This document shows positions 18,839 to 31,441 of a stretch of DNA of 64,000 nucleotides, in pieces (positions within the stretch are counted from its first letter, which is position 1; each line of letters starts with the position of its first letter). The DNA lies in NCBI RefSeq assembly GCF_003334385.1, contig NZ_QOWN01000018.1; one strand, written 5' to 3'. A program made the position numbers and the translations under genes. Source of the stretch: Escherichia coli (GTDB lineage: Bacteria > Pseudomonadota > Gammaproteobacteria > Enterobacterales > Enterobacteriaceae). The notes below the pieces were generated by a model that did not search any database, was not told where the DNA came from, and saw only the letters and a program-made list of their open reading frames with translations.

Positions 18839-19885
18839 TCAGTTCGATACCTGGGGTATTCGACGACGACGTAGACTGTTCCATGAATAGACTGCGTTGA
18901 ATAACACTACGCCAGCGGTGACGAGAAATACCGCTCTGAAACCGTAGTTCGCTGAAATCGCTGCTCCCATCAATGGTCCGGTAACGTTGCCAATATCACG
19001 AAACGATTGGTTATAGCTGAAGATACGCCCGGCGATCTGGTTGCTCGAGTTGTAAACCAACAGTGTCTGTACGGCGGGGAGTAGTGCACCATCGGCGGCA
19101 CCGAGCAAAAAACGTAAAATCCCAAGTTGCAATGGCGTCTGAACGTAAGACATTGGGATCAACAGCAGTACAGAAAAGATCAGCGCTGTAATCAGGATCT
19201 TTTCGGGTCCGATTCGATCGCCAAGTTTGCCGAGTCGTGGTGCACTTAGCAGAGCCGCCACGCCTGGCACCGAGGCGATCATGCCACTGATAAAGGCGAC
19301 GTTACTGACGTTACCCGCCAGTTCGCGGACATACAGCGTCAGAATGGGGGCAATTGAGCCCGTCGCCACCTGGATGATTAACGTAGTGACAAACAGGCTG
19401 AGTACCAGTTTCGGGTTTTTAAGTGATGTCACCACTTCCCGCATGTGCAGCATCTCTTTTTTGCTGACCGGCTGGAATTTTTCTCTGATGCAAAACAGGG
19501 TGACGAAAAAGCAGAGTATGAGCACACTGGCGGTAATAAAGAATACCGGACGTAAGCCGTAGCTATCGGCGAGCAGGCCGCCAGCCATTGGGCCGAGCAA
19601 CGCACCACTAACGCCGCCTGTGGAGAGCGTACCCAGCGCCCAGCCGCTTTTATTACGCGGTACTTGTGTGGCGATAAGAGCATTAGCGTTGGGGACAAAT
19701 CCGCCAAGTAACCCAAGAAGCGCCCGCAGGATCAAAAACTGCCAGATATTTTGTGCCAGCCCCATCAACACCATCACGATGCCCATGCCGAGGGCAGAGC
19801 GTAATAGCATGAGTTTTCGGCCTTTACGGTCGGCGAGTCCACCCCAAAACGGTGAGGCGATGGCCGAAAATAAAAATGTAATGCT
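18839..19885 (-). pseudogene. mdtG: mdtG 3-prime portion (MFS efflux transporter) cut off from its start by the insertion
   Basis: The frame reads ...[34 protein letters not shown]... to stop at 18839. It continues the 62-codon N-terminal piece at 31260-31441. Upstream of 19885 the frame hits a stop inside foreign DNA. Confidence 0.93.
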
Positions 19886-19907
19886 GATATTTGTTCCCTA
19901 AATACAC
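19864..19907. other. attL-type junction: mdtG arm / shared CTGA (proposed CT core 19884-19885) / element arm GATATTTGTTCCCTAAATACAC
   Basis: The host reading frame is lost within 19881-19887. The same CTGA occurs at the other junction (31260-31263). Confidence 0.75.
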
Positions 19908-20048
19908 CATGAGAACATACCTGTTAATAACAGGACAATATCAGGTGAATGATTATGCAATTCAACGGTGTTTTTCCAAGTATCTAAGCAGTTTTACACA
20001 GATTCTATGCAGTATCGGTATAGTCTCTTTTTAGCATAACTTATTGAT

Positions 20049-20080
20049 ATCTATAAAGAATCTGTGAAGTCTCTTTTCAG
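20049..20080 (+). repeat. left copy of a roughly 32-bp direct repeat ATCTATAAAG-A-ATCTGTGAAG-TCTCTTTTCAG flanking the small recombinase gene
   Basis: Aligns with 21162-21191 (ATCTTTAAAG-T-ATCTGTAAAG-ACTTTTAAG), about 25 of 32 positions, same orientation. Degenerate extra copies lie at about 20022-20037, 21127-21140 and 21229-21254. Confidence 0.7.
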
Positions 20081-20287
20081 GGTAAACTGTATCGTGTTAG
20101 TCGTCCCTCTCTCGACTCCTAGAAAAGTGCTATATACAGGGCTATATAACGATATATAGATAGTTGGTCACATGGTGTAACTATCAAGAAACTTAACGAT
20201 TTCCTACGTGAAAGTTAGAAAGTGATGGTTATAGTTACCCTCCTAAAATCTTCATAGCTCCTTCATAACCAGTCTTAAAAGGACTTC

Positions 20288-20393
20288 CTTATGAGACACT
20301 TTCAACGTAACGGTAGAATGCACCTTCCAAGTGTCTCATAAGCTTGTTTTTGAATTATGAGACAGCTAAACTTATGAGACCAACTTTTGAGAC
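20288..20393 (+). promoter_or_regulatory. cluster of five TTATGAGAC-type boxes, including a perfect 14-bp inverted repeat, directly upstream of the small serine recombinase gene
   Basis: Boxes lie at 20289-20297, 20333-20341 (inverted), 20355-20363, 20372-20380 and 20385-20393 (TTTTGAGAC). CTTATGAGACACTT (20288-20301) is the exact reverse complement of 20329-20342. A possible weak promoter TTGAAT-17-TATGAG overlaps the boxes. Confidence 0.6.
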
Positions 20394-20408
20394 TTCTTAG
20401 GGGGATGT

Positions 20409-20957
20409 ATGGCGGTGATTGGTTATTGCAGGGTATCAACACAAGACCAGACTGTAGACAACCAGAAACTACAGATAGAGAAGGTTCACAAGGTCGATAA
20501 ATGGTTTATTGATGAGGCTGTCTCAGGAGCTACAAAGGCCACCAGCAGAGATGGTTTTAGAGACATGATGAACTATGTAAGGTGTGACGATACGTTAGTT
20601 GTGGTAGCTATTGACCGTTTAGGGCGTAATACCGTTGATGTGCTCTCTAACGTGGAGGCACTACAGACTAAAGGTGTGAGGGTTGTTTCTCTACGTGAAG
20701 GTTTCGACTTATTAACACCAATCGGTAGAGCAATGCTTACTATGATGGCTGGTTTAGCTGACCTTGAAAAAGACCTTATCAGTGAACGTAGAAAGGCTGG
20801 TATTGAACGTGCTAAAGCTGAAGGGGTTCACATGGGGAGACCTGTAAAAGCTTCTTCAGAGACTGTAAAGATGCTTATCTCACAAGGTAAAACGAGGTTG
20901 CAGATTCAGGAAGAGCTAGGAATCTCTAGAGCAACTTATTACAGACTTGCTAAATAA
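20409..20957 (+). CDS. small serine recombinase (resolvase/invertase family) with C-terminal HTH
   Basis: 182 aa. N-terminal IGYCRVSTQDQ catalytic-serine motif, DRLGRN, and C-terminal GRP...GISRATYYRL HTH. AGGGGGA RBS 5 nt upstream. Confidence 0.9.
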   Translation: MAVIGYCRVSTQDQTVDNQKLQIEKVHKVDKWFIDEAVSGATKATSRDGFRDMMNYVRCDDTLVVVAIDRLGRNTVDVLSNVEALQTKGVRVVSLREGFDLLTPIGRAMLTMMAGLADLEKDLISERRKAGIERAKAEGVHMGRPVKASSETVKMLISQGKTRLQIQEELGISRATYYRLAK

Positions 20958-21161
20958 GTTACTGAATAGTTACATGGATGTAGCTGATATTTGGCTTTTT
21001 TGCAAAGGGGGTCACATAGCTGGTGTGACGGGTACTTAGCAGGTATAGACCTGTGATAGATATTTTCGAAGATTCGGGGAAGATGAGATTCAAAGAGGGC
21101 TAGTCATTTTTTATAAAAATTTTCAGAATCTGAAAAGTTACTGTACAGAATATATACAGAC

Positions 21162-21191
21162 ATCTTTAAAGTATCTGTAAAGACTTTTAAG
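21162..21191 (+). repeat. right copy of the direct repeat flanking the small recombinase gene
   Basis: See 20049-20080. Confidence 0.7.
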
Positions 21192-21300
21192 ATAAAAGAT
21201 AGATATCCAGAAAGGATATCCGTTTAGAAAGACTGTTAAGTATCTCTTAAAAGAGAGTAAACCTTGTCAATAGTGATTGCAATAAAAATTTTTATTTCTT

Positions 21301-21963
21301 ATGTCAATTGAGCATATTTTAATCGGGAAGCATCATGGGGGTTCTGATTACTGGAGAACTCCATTTTTGTTATTTAAGAATCTAAACTGTGAATATATTT
21401 TCACGCTGGATGGTGCTGCAACTAAGCACGATACGTTATTACCCCGCTTTACGGATGATATTCACAATCAATCGTGGATTGGCGAAAGGGTGTTCTGTAA
21501 CCCGCCGTACAGCGATATTCCGTCGTTCCTCATAAAAGCGTCTGAGGCAGATTTAGCGGTATTCCTGATACCGTATAGAGCCAACACCAGCTACTGGCTT
21601 AGGCACATTTACAGCAATAACCACTGTCATGAAATCCGTATTCTTCATCGTGCAGTTAAATACCTTCCACCAGCAGGCCATAACGGGCTTACTATTCGTT
21701 CACCGTTTCCAAGTGCAGTCATTGTTTTTAAAAAAGAACCACGCAGGCATGAAATTACGCAGATGATTTGCTGTGCTGATACATTGCTACCGTTAACCAT
21801 CATTAACAGAGGAGGCTTAAGAGGAAGACCCACCATTTACCCACCTGAGACGCTCGACAGCTTCATAAAACTATACAGGCAAGGAAAACCCATTAAGTGC
21901 ATTGCAGATGCTCTCAGAATGCCTCTGAGCACGTCATACAGGATTGCGCAAAGGTTGAGCTAA
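21301..21963 (+). CDS. phage-type DNA N6-adenine methyltransferase (NPPY motif) fused to a resolvase-type C-terminal HTH
   Basis: 220 aa. SDYWRTPFLLF...LDGAA...VFCNPPYS is typical of the phage Dam-like family. The C-terminus GRPTIYPPETLDSFIKLYRQGKPIKCIADALRMPLSTSYRI resembles the DNA-binding tail of resolvases. No obvious SD, so the start is uncertain. Confidence 0.7.
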   Translation: MSIEHILIGKHHGGSDYWRTPFLLFKNLNCEYIFTLDGAATKHDTLLPRFTDDIHNQSWIGERVFCNPPYSDIPSFLIKASEADLAVFLIPYRANTSYWLRHIYSNNHCHEIRILHRAVKYLPPAGHNGLTIRSPFPSAVIVFKKEPRRHEITQMICCADTLLPLTIINRGGLRGRPTIYPPETLDSFIKLYRQGKPIKCIADALRMPLSTSYRIAQRLS

Positions 21964-22325: not shown

Positions 22326-23294
22326 ATGAAAAAAGAAACTAATGCTTTTATTATGGTAGATAAACGAGTTGCACAATTCCCTAAAACATTAAAGCCAATT
22401 GACCGCTTGGTATATTTCACTATGCTGGATGGTGCTGATTATTACGAATCTAAGTTCGGGAGATATGCACCAAGTATTGACTATTTGATGGTTATGTCTG
22501 GTGCTACACGTAATACAGTTATTGACTCTCTGAAAAGACTTGAGTCACACAGGCTTATTGAGAAGACCAATATCAAAGGGCAGCAAAGTATTTTTAAAGT
22601 ATTCACGTTAGATGAGCGTCCAGAAGTCTTATCAGAACCTACCCTTGATGAGCGTCGTAGAGTCAAATTATCAGGTCAACCAGAATCTGACACTAACCCA
22701 ACCAAAAATTGGTTACCTACCCAACCAGAATTTGGTTACCTACCTAACCAGAAATTGGTTACATGTAATACTGAATATAAAGACAAAAATATAAAAACTA
22801 AAGAAGAAAGACTAAAAGGGAACTTTGAAGAAGAATCTCTTAAGAAGGGAGCTTCGCTCTGTGATTCACATGAATGTGATATTAAAGAAGATGACTTTCT
22901 TTCTTTGGATGAATTAAATGATTTTCTCTCTATGAATGAATCTGACCTTGATAGTGAAGCTACTAAAGAGGTCGTTAAAAAGGAAGATAAAATCTCTGAT
23001 GTGATTGCTAGTAGTGACCATAAAAACACACAGTGCCCCGCCACTGATGATGAGATGGACCCCTTCGATGATGATGAAGAGGATGAAGAGTCAGAACGTG
23101 AAAAAGCCATTAAGAGGGTAGAGAAGAAAAAGAGATTCGAGCTTGCAAGACAAAAGAACAAAGTATCGGGTTTAGACCCATTCGATGACAGTGAAGATGA
23201 TTATTATCTTTCACCGAGAAAGAAACAAACCCAGGATGACAAGAAGCAAAAAATTAAACCGAAGATGTATTTTGCTGGTGGAGGTATGCGCTAA
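22326..23294 (+). CDS. putative replication initiator (N-terminal winged-helix-like domain, iteron-encoding linker, acidic/Lys-rich C-terminus)
   Basis: 322 aa with GAGG RBS. Its architecture parallels lambda O: the origin iterons lie inside the gene. Function is inferred, not recognised by homology. Confidence 0.55.
   Translation: MKKETNAFIMVDKRVAQFPKTLKPIDRLVYFTMLDGADYYESKFGRYAPSIDYLMVMSGATRNTVIDSLKRLESHRLIEKTNIKGQQSIFKVFTLDERPEVLSEPTLDERRRVKLSGQPESDTNPTKNWLPTQPEFGYLPNQKLVTCNTEYKDKNIKTKEERLKGNFEEESLKKGASLCDSHECDIKEDDFLSLDELNDFLSMNESDLDSEATKEVVKKEDKISDVIASSDHKNTQCPATDDEMDPFDDDEEDEESEREKAIKRVEKKKRFELARQKNKVSGLDPFDDSEDDYYLSPRKKQTQDDKKQKIKPKMYFAGGGMR
22678..22810. other. putative origin of replication: half-iteron plus three 23-bp-spaced palindromic iterons AACCA-N5-TGGTT, then an AT-rich tract
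   Basis: AACCAAAAATTGGTT at 22700-22714, AACCAGAATTTGGTT at 22723-22737, AACCAGAAATTGGTT at 22746-22760, and a half-site AACCAGAAT at 22678. The A/T-rich run 22761-22810 follows. Confidence 0.65.
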
Positions 23295-26577: not shown

Positions 26578-28749
26578 ATGGCACAGTTTAAAGTTGATGA
26601 TTTTCTGATTGAGCTAGGTTTTAACTCTCAGAGGGTTTTAAAAGGTCTGGAAAAAGCCGAGAAACAAACGATGCAGGTAGCATCACGAATTGAGAAGCGA
26701 TTGAATAAAGCTTTTAAAGTTAACCCTACGCCTTTAAATGATTCTCTCAAGGTCATGGAAAGAAATGTCGATAAAACTGTTTCCAAGATTGAGCAGCGTC
26801 TTAAAAACACTAAAGCGTTTAAGATTAAAACGGAAATTGAGGATACTTTAAAGCCACTTAAACAACCGAGACAGCCACGAATTAGCGGCAACAGAGCAAT
26901 CACAGCAGCACATAGTGTGAATATGTCTAAGCTTGGTGATATTAATCCGCTGATGGCTAAAATGTTTAAAGCACAGTATTACAGCTTAAGCGGTAAGGCT
27001 GGTAATATTGGAAGTGAAAAGTTTAACGCTGAACTTGCAAAATTAAATCAATCTCTTCGTGAAACGTTGAATAAACTCAGGTCACAGACAAAGACCGCCA
27101 GCATCAGCAAAGTAAATGATTCCTTTAATAATCTTGCAAGCAATGCAATTAAGTTATCTGGTGCATTTTACTCTGTGATGGGTGCTCTTAACGCTTACAA
27201 GGCCATTATGAATGCAGGTCTTAAACGAGATTCCGCACAGAGAGCCGCTAAGTTTGTACTTGGTGATAAAGCATCTGAAGCTGAAACATTTATCAGGGGA
27301 CTGGCTGACAAGACAGGTCTTAATATCTCTGAAGGACTATCAAGCTACGCTAAGTTTGCAGCAGGTGCTCAGGGTTCTATGTCACAGGAACAGACACAGG
27401 AGCTATTTGGTAATGCAACGGCTATGAGCCGTTTAATGGGGCTTTCTAACGATGAACTAAACGGCATTTTGAAAGCTTTTGAGCAGATGGCTTCTAAGGG
27501 CAAGATTCAGGCTGAAGAATTACGTGGGCAGTTAGGTGACCGTATGGCTGGTGCATTTAAGCTATTCGCTGAAGCATTGGGTATGACTGCTACAGAGCTT
27601 GATGCAGCCATGAAAAACGGGAAGGTACTTTCCGCTGATACTCTCCCTAAAGTCGCTAAACAGATGGGCTTGATGATTGATAAAGCGGGTGGCTGGGCTG
27701 AAGTCGCTAAGAGCACCCAGACAGCTTTAGGTAAGTTAGCAAACAACTGGGATGATACGATGGTTAAAATCTTCTCAGGTTCACAGGATGAGTTAAACGG
27801 CTTCTTATCCAGCCTGGGTAGCCTGCTTAGTGAAATGGGGATGAGTTCTTCTATCGCTGGTGATGCTATCGGTGGACTTATCGACATGCTTAAAGCTGGT
27901 GTAGATGATATTCGCGTATTCAATAACACCATTGAAGGCTGGATTTTACAGGTTAAAAAGTTCTATTACAGCCTTGATGACACTAAACGAAAACTACTTG
28001 ATGAAGTCGGTGATGGTTTTATCAATTTTGTCAAAGGTCTTGCTATAGCGTTATCTGCAAAGACGCTATTCAGTGCCACTACAGGGGTGATGAACCTGAC
28101 AAGAGCAATCACAACGTTAGGTACAAGAGCTAATCAGGTGGCTGGTCAGGTAACTACTGGTAAAGGTGGTGGAAAACTGAAAGGTGTAGCTGGTGGTGTA
28201 GGTAGTGCTCTTGCAATTGGTTATGCTGATGACGGTTATGAAACAGCGTTAGCATTAGCTTCAATGATTCCACAAATCAGAGGTGTCACCCTTGGTTTAT
28301 ATGCATTGAAGAAAGCACTGGATTTTATGAATCAGGAAGTAGTCAAAAACGCTAATATGCATCCATCTGGGGTAGGTGTGGGTAGTGACTTTAATCCTGT
28401 GTATTCTGGTGACCCTAATAAACCGAATATGATTAACGAAGGATGGAGTAAAATTTTTAATTCAATGGGTGAATTGTTTAACAATGCCACAATGAATATT
28501 GCAAGATTCAATCATCCAGAATTAAACAACATTAAGCAAGATTCAGCATTAACGAGTGCAGATATTCAGAGTCTGAGGGATGAAATTAGTGCTTTGAGTA
28601 AACGTATTCAGGAGCCTGTGAAAGTTTCACTTGGTGGTGAAGTTGCCATTAAACCAGATGAAACCAGCTTTATGACCTTTAGCAGTAATATCTACGACCA
28701 ATATGCAGAAGCTACGCTATTAAGTTCATCATTCCCAGAAGATGATTGA
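26578..28749 (+). CDS. phage tail tape-measure protein
   Basis: 723 aa with a coiled-coil N-terminus. The central tape-measure signature is GKIQAEELRGQLGDRMAGAFKLFAEALGMTATELDAAMKNGKVLSADTLPKVAKQMG. Gly-rich hydrophobic segments lie near the C-terminus. Confidence 0.8.
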   Translation: MAQFKVDDFLIELGFNSQRVLKGLEKAEKQTMQVASRIEKRLNKAFKVNPTPLNDSLKVMERNVDKTVSKIEQRLKNTKAFKIKTEIEDTLKPLKQPRQPRISGNRAITAAHSVNMSKLGDINPLMAKMFKAQYYSLSGKAGNIGSEKFNAELAKLNQSLRETLNKLRSQTKTASISKVNDSFNNLASNAIKLSGAFYSVMGALNAYKAIMNAGLKRDSAQRAAKFVLGDKASEAETFIRGLADKTGLNISEGLSSYAKFAAGAQGSMSQEQTQELFGNATAMSRLMGLSNDELNGILKAFEQMASKGKIQAEELRGQLGDRMAGAFKLFAEALGMTATELDAAMKNGKVLSADTLPKVAKQMGLMIDKAGGWAEVAKSTQTALGKLANNWDDTMVKIFSGSQDELNGFLSSLGSLLSEMGMSSSIAGDAIGGLIDMLKAGVDDIRVFNNTIEGWILQVKKFYYSLDDTKRKLLDEVGDGFINFVKGLAIALSAKTLFSATTGVMNLTRAITTLGTRANQVAGQVTTGKGGGKLKGVAGGVGSALAIGYADDGYETALALASMIPQIRGVTLGLYALKKALDFMNQEVVKNANMHPSGVGVGSDFNPVYSGDPNKPNMINEGWSKIFNSMGELFNNATMNIARFNHPELNNIKQDSALTSADIQSLRDEISALSKRIQEPVKVSLGGEVAIKPDETSFMTFSSNIYDQYAEATLLSSSFPEDD

Positions 28750-28905
28750 TTTAACGGTGTTCTACGTGAATAAAGCAAAGTTAATACCCGCACTAAAAAT
28801 TATTTTTTACGTAGCACACGCTTAACAGAGAAAATACTTATATATCAAAGGCTTGGTTAAAAATGATTAAAATACACTAAGCCTTTGAAATCAAAGGAGA
28901 ATTTA

Positions 28906-29694
28906 ATGATTTACTCTAATCAACTTCGTTACAGTGGCAAAGATGGTGTTTACTTCCATCTACAAGGCCAACCAGATAATTTCTTGTCACTATCAGCAAC
29001 AGAGAACATGGAATTTGACAGCCCTATGATGGTGACCACTCAAAATATGCAATCAGGGCAGACTGTAACAGATAATGTAATGCGTTCACCCAGAACTATT
29101 TCAATCAGTGGTGTGGTTGTAGTTGGTGAATCCGGTAGTATCCTCATCTCAAGAGATAATAAGCTGGTGGAAAACTTCATCGACACTCTTGAAAGCTGGC
29201 GTGACCAGAAGCAAATTATTTCGGTCATCTGTAAAGACGGAATTAAAATTGATGATTCTATTATTACGAGTTTTAAAGCCTCTAAAGATGTTGGTATTTC
29301 AAATGGTCTAAGAGTCCAGCTAACTTTTCAGGAAATTAACTTTAAAGCAATTGTAGGGCAAACTGATGTTTCAGCAGCTACTGGCAAAGCTGCCACCACG
29401 AATGACGGTGGTGTGACCAGTAAGAAGAATGCAGGTAACGTGACCACTGAACGCAATAACGCGCCTATGCTATCGTGCAAAGAGTTAATGAATATTAGCG
29501 ATGTATCCGGTTACGTTCCGGCTATCAGAAATGATATTCTCGATGCTCAGATTAAGTGCAATAAAGCTTGGAAGCTGGACTATTCAGACTTAACAGAAGC
29601 TGAAAAAACCAACGTCACCAATGCTAATAGTAACGCTGGTCGAGTAGCTTCAAAGCTTAAAAAGTACTCAGTGAATCCTAATAAGAGATACTAA
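28906..29694 (+). CDS. putative distal-tail (Dit-like) / baseplate-hub protein
   Basis: AAGGAG RBS before ATG 28906 (the track start 28885 is TTG). The N-terminal pattern [36 protein letters not shown] resembles Dit-like tail proteins, and it sits directly after the tape-measure gene. Confidence 0.45.
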
Positions 29695-31220
29695 ATCTCT
29701 ACTACATCAACATCTATTAAACCCCTCTCAGTGACTTCAGAAAGCGACTGTATAGCCTCTGTAACGTTGTCTGAGGGGTTTTCTGTTATAGGTAGGTCAA
29801 TTACCTTGCCGTTGTGAAAAGTCACTTTACAGCGACGTTTAGCGGCATCTATAACTATTTCTTTGAGTACGCCCTTGATAAGTAGCTGTGTCTCTATCAT
29901 CCCTTCCTTTGTTGTCCTGTCAATATCTTTGAGGCTTCCAGTTGTGATGGCCTTTATCCGCTGTGTTTCCTCTTCGATATCATGATTGAGTTTTGATAGC
30001 GCATTCTTCATATCACGTAATTTCTCTGTGATAATTGTCATGTCATCGAGTTCAATAGCGAGTTCTGCCATTTTTGAGATTTTACGCTGCAAATCTTCAC
30101 GCTGTAATTTAAGGCTATCAATAGTGTCAGTATTTTCAGTTTCAAAACGGTCGCATAATGCGAGCATGTAGAGAATAGTTGCATCCGTTTGCTTACGACT
30201 GATAGCCTTTGCACTACACCTGTTAGCTGAACGATTAGGGCATCTGTACATCCCAAAACGTTTTAAGGCATATCCACCAAGAACAATAGTAGCCCCACAC
30301 TCAGAACATTTGATGATACCCCTGAACAAGTTGACTGATAGCGGATTACTTGATACAGAAGCCCTACCATATTGCCCTGTGTTCAGTTGCTGTACTCGAT
30401 AGAATAGTGACTCACTGATTATTGCGGGGTAGTAACCCTGAACTTCTTCACGTCCAGCAGGTGTGAAACATCCAATCACAGCACGATTTCTGAGTAGTTT
30501 CTTTACAGCAGTATCAGACCACCCCTTTTGTTTGGGTGTGTATTGATTCAATGACAAGTGGCCTTCATCGTTTAAAGTTCTGGTGATAGCCCAAAAGCTT
30601 AAACCCTGTAATCTCAGGTCAAATGCTCGTTTAACAACTTCCACTTTATCGGGGATGATAGTGAATGTTCGACGGTCATCATTCAGCCTTAACCATGCAG
30701 GACAACGCCTAGATACCTTGATACCTTCGGAGATGAGTTCTTTTTTACGGTTCCATGCAGCTTGGACACGCTCAGACTTCCTCAGACTTTCCTCATGCGC
30801 CCGCTGCATTATCAGAATGCTTTTAATCAGGGATAACGGGTCTTTTAAACTTTCTCGTGTGTAATGTTCACCATCGGACAGGGTGACTACATCTACACCA
30901 GCCCTTAAGATACGGCGTAATAGCTCAGAAGCAATATCAATATCCTGACGTGACAGACGGTCTAAACTCTCGATTAGTAGCGTATCACCAGCTTTAACAA
31001 GCCCTTTCTCGATAGCGGTTAGAAAGTCACCTAGACCACCTTTCAGGTGCTTACCACTAAAAGCACTTTTCCCCAAATCTTTAAAGCTCAAGGATGAATC
31101 CAAGTAAAACTCAGGGTTCTTATCAAGCCAGTCAGTAACCAGCTTAGATTGTCTGCGTACAGAGTCCCCTTTTAGTTGTCGTTCACTTGAAAATCTGATG
31201 TAGCTGATTGCCCGTCTCAT
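29691..31220 (-). CDS. large serine recombinase (integrase)
   Basis: About 509 aa from ATG 31220 (the track begins at TTG 31226). [11 protein letters not shown] catalytic motif, DRLSRQ, a recombinase domain, a zinc-ribbon CSECG...[11 protein letters not shown] and a long coiled-coil. It lies 40 bp from the junction. Confidence 0.92.
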
Positions 31221-31239
31221 ATTCAATACCTAAAATGAT

Positions 31240-31281
31240 GTGTTTAGGAACCCATTATACTGAAGACAATACCGGACCACA
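31240..31281. other. attR-type junction: element arm GTGTTTAGGAACCCATTATA / shared CTGA (proposed CT core 31260-31261) / mdtG arm
   Basis: The mdtG frame (…[10 protein letters not shown]) leaves host sequence here and terminates after 3 foreign codons (MGS stop at 31244). Confidence 0.75.
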
Positions 31282-31441
31282 TATTCAGGGCGGAGTGACC
31301 GGTAACGCCAAGCTGCTCAACGTAGAGGGGTAAGAAGGGCATTACCAGACTGAAGGCGGCACCGGTAAGAAAACAGCCTAGCCAGGCGACGATCAGGTTT
31401 CGTTTCCAGTTTATAGGGGTGTCATTTTCACAGGGTGACAT
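31260..31441 (-). pseudogene. mdtG: mdtG 5-prime portion (first ~62 codons)
   Basis: [62 protein letters not shown] matches the MdtG N-terminus. Confidence 0.93.

Follow-up and report, generated by a model that had tools for sequence, protein, structure and literature searches.

The resolvases of Tn3 and gamma-delta (TnpR) are small serine recombinases of about 183 amino acids (aa) with a C-terminal helix-turn-helix (HTH), and their recombination site, res, lies directly upstream of the gene. Tn3 res is made up of three subsites of 28, 34 and 25 bp in the order I-II-III-gene, with a gap of 5 bp between II and III, and the half-site of gamma-delta reads TGTCTGATAA. DNA invertases act on two 26-bp sites of the hix/gix type (12+2+12), inverted around a segment next to the gene, together with a Fis enhancer, and the Sin/beta-type enzymes resolve replicon multimers and are not tied to transposition. 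Cre/loxP of phage P1 is a site-specific system of a phage-related replicon that resolves dimers and circularises redundant incoming DNA. The central spacers of the Tn3 subsites, 4, 10 and 1 bp, follow from the subsite sizes taken together with the reported spacer differences (PMC9943657). Three dimers are bound per 114 bp in Tn3/gamma-delta res, and two dimers plus HU/IHF over 86 bp in Sin res, where site II is head-to-tail (PMC2428073). Here we describe a small serine recombinase gene (20409-20957, + strand) and the repeats around it in a 64-kb stretch of Escherichia coli DNA (contig NZ_QOWN01000018.1), hereafter called the window. As judged from its sequence, the gene with the DNA immediately upstream of it is likely to be a self-contained, self-regulated res-resolvase module, built like the res of Tn3 and gamma-delta and carried as an optional cassette by a phage-satellite-like island. 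A preliminary description of this DNA had listed direct and inverted repeats on both sides of the gene and had read gene and flanks as an excisable or invertible cassette of 0.8-1.1 kb or, alternatively, as a multi-site res-like synapse or a set of operators. All of the listed repeats were found where they had been placed. They fall into three unrelated layers, a res-like site, a cassette and the outer repeats of the island backbone; since these elements are of unequal statistical and comparative weight, the repeats exist but do not form one array flanking one gene.

The res-like site covers 124 bp (20271-20394) and consists of six half-sites with the 12-mer consensus TGTCTCAAAAGG. Site I, the predicted crossover site (20271-20298, + strand), has the form AGTCTTAAAAGG-ACTT-CCTTATGAGACA, with inverted half-sites (12+4+12 = 28 bp). 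Site II (20332-20364, + strand), TGTCTCATAAGC-N9-AATTATGAGACA, is likewise an inverted pair (12+9+12 = 33 bp), and in site III (20370-20394, + strand), which ends 14 nt before the ATG, two half-sites stand head-to-tail (12+1+12 = 25 bp). Gaps of 33 bp and 5 bp separate I from II and II from III. As sequence architecture, the locus thus has the three dimer sites of the Tn3/gamma-delta system, with a 28-bp inverted crossover site distal to the gene. When both strands of the window were searched for TTATGAGAC at no more than one mismatch, four of the six matches fell inside 93 bp (20289-20381), with 3.8 expected window-wide; by our own Poisson estimate, clustering of this kind has a probability of about 1e-10. 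The inverted repeat that had been listed upstream of the gene (14 bp, perfect, spacer of 27 bp) is real, although it is not a single site: one arm is the right-hand half of site I, the other the left-hand half of site II. In a search of the window with the site I pattern GTCTYAWAA-N8-TTWTRAGAC and a site II-type pair pattern, only 20272 and 20333 matched with no mismatches, weaker matches being at background level, and no second crossover-type (site I-like or site II-like) site was found in the 64 kb. The -35 hexamer of a promoter-like element, ATGAGA-17 nt-TAGAAT (20291-20319, + strand), falls within the right-hand half of site I, the -10 hexamer in the I-II spacer. The nAGAAT hexamer and the flanking ACG..GAATGC.CC are kept in several lineages, and the rest of that spacer diverges. 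It is a reasonable inference that this element may function as the promoter of the gene, and that the gene may be autoregulated through it.

The open reading frame (ORF) at 20409-20957, stop codon included, encodes 182 aa. Residues 3-140 match PF00239 (Resolvase) with E = 3.8e-41, as expected of the small serine recombinase family, and residues 143-179 form a C-terminal HTH that matches HTH_7 with 28.5 bits against a cut-off of 23.8 bits. Arg8, Ser10, Asp68-Arg69 and Arg72 are all present in the translation, and the ratio of nonsynonymous to synonymous polymorphism (pN/pS) measured against two relatives was 0.09-0.17. By these sequence measures the recombinase is an intact enzyme under purifying selection. 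The protein resembles TnpR in its size, its C-terminal HTH and the position of res directly upstream, and the site resembles Tn3 res in having three dimer sites of 12-bp half-sites, with central spacers (4, 9 and 1 bp) close to those of Tn3 (4, 10 and 1 bp). The order I-II-III-gene, the 5-bp gap between II and III and a promoter overlapping the site, here a predicted one, are also shared, and the half-site TGTCTCATAA is similar to the TGTCTGATAA of gamma-delta. Unlike in Tn3 res, the I-II gap of 33 bp is about one helical turn longer, and the module is found in an integrative island, with no Tn3-family transposase in the proteins scanned. The accessory site with head-to-tail half-sites is a likeness to Sin and beta recombinase (PMC2428073). 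Sin res differs in comprising two dimer sites and an architectural protein site over about 86 bp, as opposed to three dimer sites over 124 bp here, and the protein itself matches Sin less well (58 bits).

A comparison of upstream regions took in the window, a Klebsiella plasmid, 17 loci taken as one genome per species (proteins 63-98% identical) and six loci from a protein database. Box spacings were identical in 20 of the 24 homologous loci examined, which represent about 18 genera. Four start-to-start spacings, namely 17 bp from I-L to I-R, 22 bp from II-L to II-R, 17 bp from II-R to III-a and 13 bp from III-a to III-b, were invariant in every locus that keeps the site; these include loci of E. 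coli, E. albertii, Klebsiella (chromosome and plasmid), Rahnella, Mixta, Leclercia, Erwinia, Mangrovibacter, Kosakonia, Serratia, Buttiauxella, Enterobacter, Lonsdalea and Biostraticola. The distance from I-R to II-L is 43-44 bp, and 32 bp in Lonsdalea, where one helical turn less leaves a gap of 21 bp. The 17-bp spacing of site I was present in 19 of 20 loci scanned with the motif and, by eye, also in Aeromonas and Laribacter. Between lineages the spacers have wholly diverged and the boxes are of near-maximal information. The Aeromonas homologue, 53% identical, keeps all of the spacings, and five of its six half-sites have GCTCA for GTCTCA, the sixth being deviant; its recognition helix differs as well (GISPASVKRA vs GISRATYYRL). 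Such co-variation of box and recognition helix is as expected if the protein reads the boxes. Identity to the Klebsiella plasmid p2B30155 (69% in DNA) starts exactly at 20271, with site I conserved, and because this plasmid has no other island gene in common, the boxes travel with the gene alone. With a geometry conserved across genera for all six half-sites, the multi-site res-like reading of the preliminary description held for the 14-bp inverted repeat and the gene-proximal boxes and failed for the other repeats.

Around the module, mdtG is interrupted by 11.3 kb of DNA with a G+C content of about 40% (~19912 to ~31245); the left end of this island was fixed by where matches start in other integration sites. 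Related islands were found in 547 of 5,426 complete E. coli genomes, inserted in mdtG, wrbA or yecE or beside yciI. Homology to islands with other contents at the position of the module ends at 20217 (or 20236) and restarts exactly at 20998. The res site and recombinase gene therefore occupy a variable slot of the island as a cassette of about 780 bp (20218-20997, + strand), called cassette A. This cassette was found in 198 of the genomes, cassette B in 107 and cassette C in 292. Cassette B encodes, on the - strand, a 189-aa recombinase that is only 35% identical to the cassette A enzyme; upstream of it are three inverted pairs of boxes of different sequence, TGTCTATA, so each enzyme comes with its own site. 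Cassette C, the commonest slot content, is a conserved non-coding filler of about 430 bp without an annotated gene (for example 1827-2252 of island L004, and in L006 and L032). In one genome, JKHS016, the slot is nearly empty. A site-specific deletion was considered as the origin of this state and rejected, because cassette-edge sequence is still kept and the deletion is hence internal.

The outer repeats lie outside the recombinase module, in the backbone of the island. The non-coding backbone at the left end (19912-20217) carries blocks at 20004-20039 and 20046-20085, a GCTATATA triplet and TTGGTCAC, and that between the slot and a dam-like gene (20998-21300) carries a palindrome (21011-21029), a TTTTCAGAaTCTGAAAA/CTGTACAG block and an array of blocks (21159-21258). 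The blocks are composed of 11-bp units, ATCTnTnnAGw. That a 32-bp block has a second copy downstream was borne out: the 30-bp direct repeat 20046-20075 / 21159-21188 is identical at 24 of 30 positions, a score that none of 200 dinucleotide shuffles reached, and a third, closer copy absent from the original list was found at 20004-20039. The best inverted match between the two flanks was equalled in 10 of 200 shuffles. The sequence at 20967-20985, described as a direct relative of 20161-20182, is present, but the similarity is weak. On both sides of the slot the backbone is conserved irrespective of the cassette, including the 32-bp blocks, the GCTATATA triplet and TTGGTCACATGGTGTAAC. The GCTATATA/GATATATA triplet (20129-20158) and TTGGTCAC (20164-20171) were conserved in all seven aligned islands, whatever cassette they carried, and the 21011 palindrome in most islands, other sequence replacing it in two cassette A islands (L003 and L008). 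The outer repeats are also unlike the conserved half-site of the recombinase. Because this backbone is conserved irrespective of the cassette, the outer repeats cannot be cognate sites of the cassette A enzyme.

The downstream array is located just upstream of the island operon that runs from the dam-like gene through rep to the tape-measure gene. Across 253 phage records, mostly Felix-O1-like (Ounavirinae) genomes, a single intergenic region shares about 80-82% identity with 21160-21240 of this stretch, with weaker similarity to ~21300. The counterpart in phage Moogle is 67047-67200, the divergent region between genes 86 and 87. Given this homology, the array is most probably a phage-type promoter or operator region, which suggests that the island copies a promoter/operator of a helper phage, so that its operon would respond to infection. 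The upstream blocks would be paralogous backbone elements near the left end of the island, positioned in the excised circle upstream of the integrase gene. The idea that the boxes are operators is reasonable for the backbone arrays, the downstream one being homologous to an intergenic regulatory region of phages. Three other candidate functions were rejected. The block motif does not qualify as a dispersed phage promoter, for it is not repeated in 49 kb of phage Moogle, the homology being to a single intergenic region. As replication iterons, the flanking blocks differ in sequence from the O-type iterons, which lie in the rep gene (22696-22762), and the supposed shared motif TAAAGACT occurs once only. 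A LexA box in CTGTACAGAATATATACAG has, by inspection, the wrong spacing (N11 instead of N8).

These comparisons bear on the proposal of an invertible or excisable cassette, in which the recombinase would act on the blocks at 20046/21159, on TAGTT..ACATGG at 20161/20967 and on GGTCACAT at 20166/21010. The 30-bp direct repeat is statistically real, slot content varies among islands, and GGTCACAT-type elements are found near both slot boundaries with mosaic breakpoints close by (20171 and 21161), all of which the proposal would explain. It is opposed by the retention of the same repeats, dissimilar to the half-site, in islands with the opposite-strand recombinase of 35% identity or with none, by the loss of the 21011-21029 palindrome from two cassette A islands and by the phage origin of the downstream block array. 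Rearranged genomes were also sought. An artificial query with 20218-20997 inverted gave no junction-spanning match in the 5,426 genomes, the best coverage being 57% and due to the cassette alone, and the collinear arrangement of cassette and flank was found in 114-181 of them. The product predicted for a deletion between the 30-bp blocks (20046/21159) matched no genome, and 54 apparent matches to a deletion between the GGTCACAT elements (20166/21010) proved to be two pieces joined across cassette C. With outer repeats that belong to the backbone, no genome of the 5,426 with cassette A inverted or deleted from block to block, and no second crossover-type site in the window, an invertible or excisable cassette appears largely refuted by the comparative data and is extremely improbable.

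According to the mechanism that we propose for the res-resolvase module, the 182-aa recombinase would bind as three dimers to the six 12-bp half-sites immediately upstream of its own gene. As in Tn3 and gamma-delta, a supercoiled molecule with two res sites in direct repeat would form a synapse between them, and the copies would come apart by strand exchange in the middle of site I, where cleavage is predicted at the central CT (20284-20285). With the single res of the integrated island, no reaction would take place in the sequenced chromosome; a substrate would arise only with an island dimer, concatemer or tandem copy. Such multimers could originate by excision and replication from the Rep/iteron origin of the island itself or by delivery as a packaged concatemer. 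They are made plausible by the island replication module, which includes an O-like Rep, three 23-bp dyad iterons and an AT-rich stretch. Since concatemeric DNA would also be at hand if a helper phage (86-90 kb genome) packages the island, resolution of multimers or concatemers, combined with autoregulation, is proposed, and the role of the module is probably to resolve island multimers. Binding to the site would probably also repress the promoter of the gene, the -35 of which lies in site I, upstream of sites II and III. Regulatory backbone DNA, partly phage-derived, would make up the direct and inverted repeats farther out, which would not be substrates of the enzyme. Cre/loxP has a role of the kind proposed here, although Cre is a tyrosine recombinase that uses a simple 34-bp site and is unrelated in sequence. 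A broader version, in which this resolvase clade is a dedicated part of phage-satellite or defence islands that integrate by large serine integrases and would serve to cut packaged concatemers, is conceivable but doubtful. If it is true, concatemers of the ~11-kb satellite in Felix-O1-type heads (~86-90 kb genome) would be cut to monomer circles for insertion by the integrase, which would add a new step to the life cycle of satellites, and the res architecture would be new as well.

Several observations weigh against the res-resolvase reading, in which binding, resolution activity, autoregulation and the biological substrate are all deduced from sequence. The first concerns the class of the enzyme. 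A search of solved structures gave 83 bits for Gin, 76 bits for gamma-delta resolvase, 73 bits for Tn3 resolvase and 58 bits for Sin, and all of the curated NCBIfam cut-offs were missed, the Mpi equivalog scoring 103.6 bits against its cut-off of 272 bits. With a sequence about equally close to Gin and to the resolvases and with the NCBIfam cut-offs unmet, the class assignment rests on the site architecture. The top PHROG match of the recombinase is labelled 'DNA invertase' and some database sources call homologues 'invertase', which, together with Gin as the best solved-structure match, would fit a Pin/Gin/Mpi-type DNA invertase whose pair of sites lies elsewhere, in the chromosome or in a helper phage. 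The score against Mpi (104 bits when rounded) is far under the cut-off, and the window contains no second site I-like sequence. The site I pattern gave two matches in a viral contig collection, both of them copies of the cassette itself. Unlike the invertase systems, with their paired sites around an invertible segment, the locus has a single site with three subsites of resolvase geometry (12+4+12), not a lone 26-bp site of the 12+2+12 hix/gix type, no partner site in the window and no inverted form in the genomes compared. An invertase is accordingly very improbable.

Further points concern the site. The half-sites of site III have the same orientation in every locus, whereas all subsites are inverted in Tn3, and the central dinucleotide of site I is CT, versus AT in gamma-delta, to whose resolvase the protein is matched by only 76 bits. 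A promoter consensus scan was not enriched over shuffles. One Pantoea locus (L020) keeps only site III and the gene, so the gene can persist with an operator-like remnant. The recombinase could instead be a domesticated DNA-binding repressor, with the six boxes as its operators and no recombination. In addition to the Pantoea locus, this explanation would account for sites that overlap and follow a promoter-like element, for the single copy of the site in the island and for the dispensability of the module. It does not account for the catalytic Ser10 and the Arg/Asp residues, kept under purifying selection in homologues down to 53% identity, nor for the 28-bp site I of 12+4+12 at a fixed geometry and at least 60 bp upstream of the other sites, which a simple operator does not need. 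We regard operators alone as rather unlikely.

Finally, about half of the E. coli islands are without a recombinase (those with cassette C; JKHS016), so the module is dispensable and the case for a multimer-resolution role is weakened. The module is accessory, and it may be a mere passenger, that is, a functional res-resolvase module captured from a plasmid or transposon that has no role in the life cycle of the island. The variable slot, the islands that lack a recombinase, the sharp cassette boundaries and the homologous module on a Klebsiella plasmid are compatible with capture. A plasmid origin of the cassette was considered and rejected, the only plasmid-borne relative being a 69%-identical module on two Klebsiella plasmids. 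No Tn3 transposase domain was found in the ORFs adjoining the module or in the 10 island proteins scanned, a scan with Pfam that left out the 269-aa Dit-like protein; the neighbouring genes are those of the island, and no terminal repeats were noted nearby, although no search aimed at them was made. Two unrelated resolvase modules have been recruited to the same slot. Distant homologues of the module recur in several genera beside large serine integrases and tape-measure-like genes (in L014 also beside a Dit-like gene), as well as in prophage-like or satellite-like contexts, which suggests repeated selection. The absence of a transposase from the proteins scanned, the double recruitment and this recurrence all speak against a passenger, which we hold to be improbable.

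The res-resolvase module adds a new and uncharacterised member to the serine resolvase/res kind, from which its architecture departs modestly. The cluster of repeats becomes a defined object that can be tested: a res of 124 bp in which six half-sites are mapped, together with its cognate 182-aa enzyme. Hundreds of enterobacterial genomes carry members of the clade of this enzyme, for which 'recombinase family protein' is the sole annotation. Genetic tools might be built on the module as a new orthogonal resolvase/res pair. It also adds a data point on the evolution of resolvase synapses, in which Tn3-like spacings are combined with a Sin-like head-to-tail accessory site and an I-II spacer whose length shifts by whole turns of the helix. 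The remainder of the 'array' would be regulatory DNA shared with Felix-O1-like phages, and more unusual than the module is the island around it.

The DNA of the window is chromosomal in E. coli (opgH, yceK, msyB and others). Besides the small serine recombinase gene, with its Resolvase and HTH_7 matches, and several small ORFs, the island carries a Dam-type methyltransferase gene (21301-21963) whose product has a resolvase-like HTH at its C-terminus, a lambda-O-like replication initiator gene (22326-23294), a gene for a tape-measure-like protein (26578-28749), a gene annotated as baseplate (28885-29694), whose relative in L014 (48% identical) has a Dit-like tail-protein domain, and, at the right end, a large serine integrase gene (29691-31226, - strand). 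The baseplate/Dit-like gene is 80-86% identical in DNA to Felix-O1-like (Ounavirinae) phages, and the tape-measure-like protein aligns end to end with Ounavirinae tape measure proteins at about 29% identity. These similarities give the 11.3-kb island as a whole the look of a satellite-type element with ties to virulent phages of the Felix-O1-like group (Ounavirinae). The initiator ORF matches PHROGs for 'replication initiation O-like', and within it 22696-22817 contains three tandem 23-bp dyad units (AACCAnAAnTTGGTT; iterons at 22696-22762) followed by an AT-rich stretch with 14-bp repeats, which on sequence grounds is a lambda-type origin inside the initiator gene. A scan of the island against Rfam gave no non-coding RNA above threshold, and a PADLOC scan for defence genes returned an orphan methyltransferase only. 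Literature searches for the island family or the half-site sequence gave nothing relevant, and no paper describing the island family was found. We know of no report of a small resolvase module in the PLE islands of Vibrio cholerae. By the description given of them, these islands are otherwise similar in context, with integration by a large serine recombinase, their own Rep and iterons, and a relation to a virulent myovirus (PMC7145576).

The island splits mdtG, which encodes an efflux pump, into a 3' part of 323 codons on the left (18839-19810) and a short 5' fragment on the right (~31250-31440), and MdtG is presumably inactive in this strain. The junctions of the island (31200-31260 and 19890-19935) have imperfect inverted symmetry, TTGTTCCCTAAATAC / GTGTTTAGGAACCCA. 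Only some 20 bp separate the start codon of the integrase (31226, - strand) from the right junction (attR), so the integrase is without its own promoter inside the integrated island. Its transcription would come from the mdtG promoter side in the chromosome and from the left end of the island in the excised circle; a leftward promoter-like site is found at that left end (19979-19952).

The Dam-like protein (21301-21963) could target, or regulate through, specific sites, for which the backbone repeats just upstream of its gene are candidates. A 233-aa Shigella sonnei protein (P0115) contains Resolvase, Dam and HTH_7 domains and is apparently a deletion fusion of the recombinase gene and the adjoining methylase gene of an island of this type. 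Homologous modules have defence cargo and phage-like genes as neighbours. In Rahnella (L009, 2066-9392) two AbiTii genes and one Shedu SduA gene adjoin the module, with a large serine integrase ahead of them; in two Aeromonas loci (L027 and L028) it is next to an AAA_5/YjiT cluster and a Rep_O/DnaB/terminase block; and in three Klebsiella loci (L029-L031) it lies in an island beside proBA that has a weak major-capsid match. Lastly, a short palindromic insert of about 25-40 bp with the core TAGTTGGGCTTGTACCAACCCC occurs at differing positions in the non-coding backbone of different islands (L001, ~1560-1585; L008, 5806-5845; L006, ~2310-2350; L003, ~1770) and may be a miniature mobile hairpin element.

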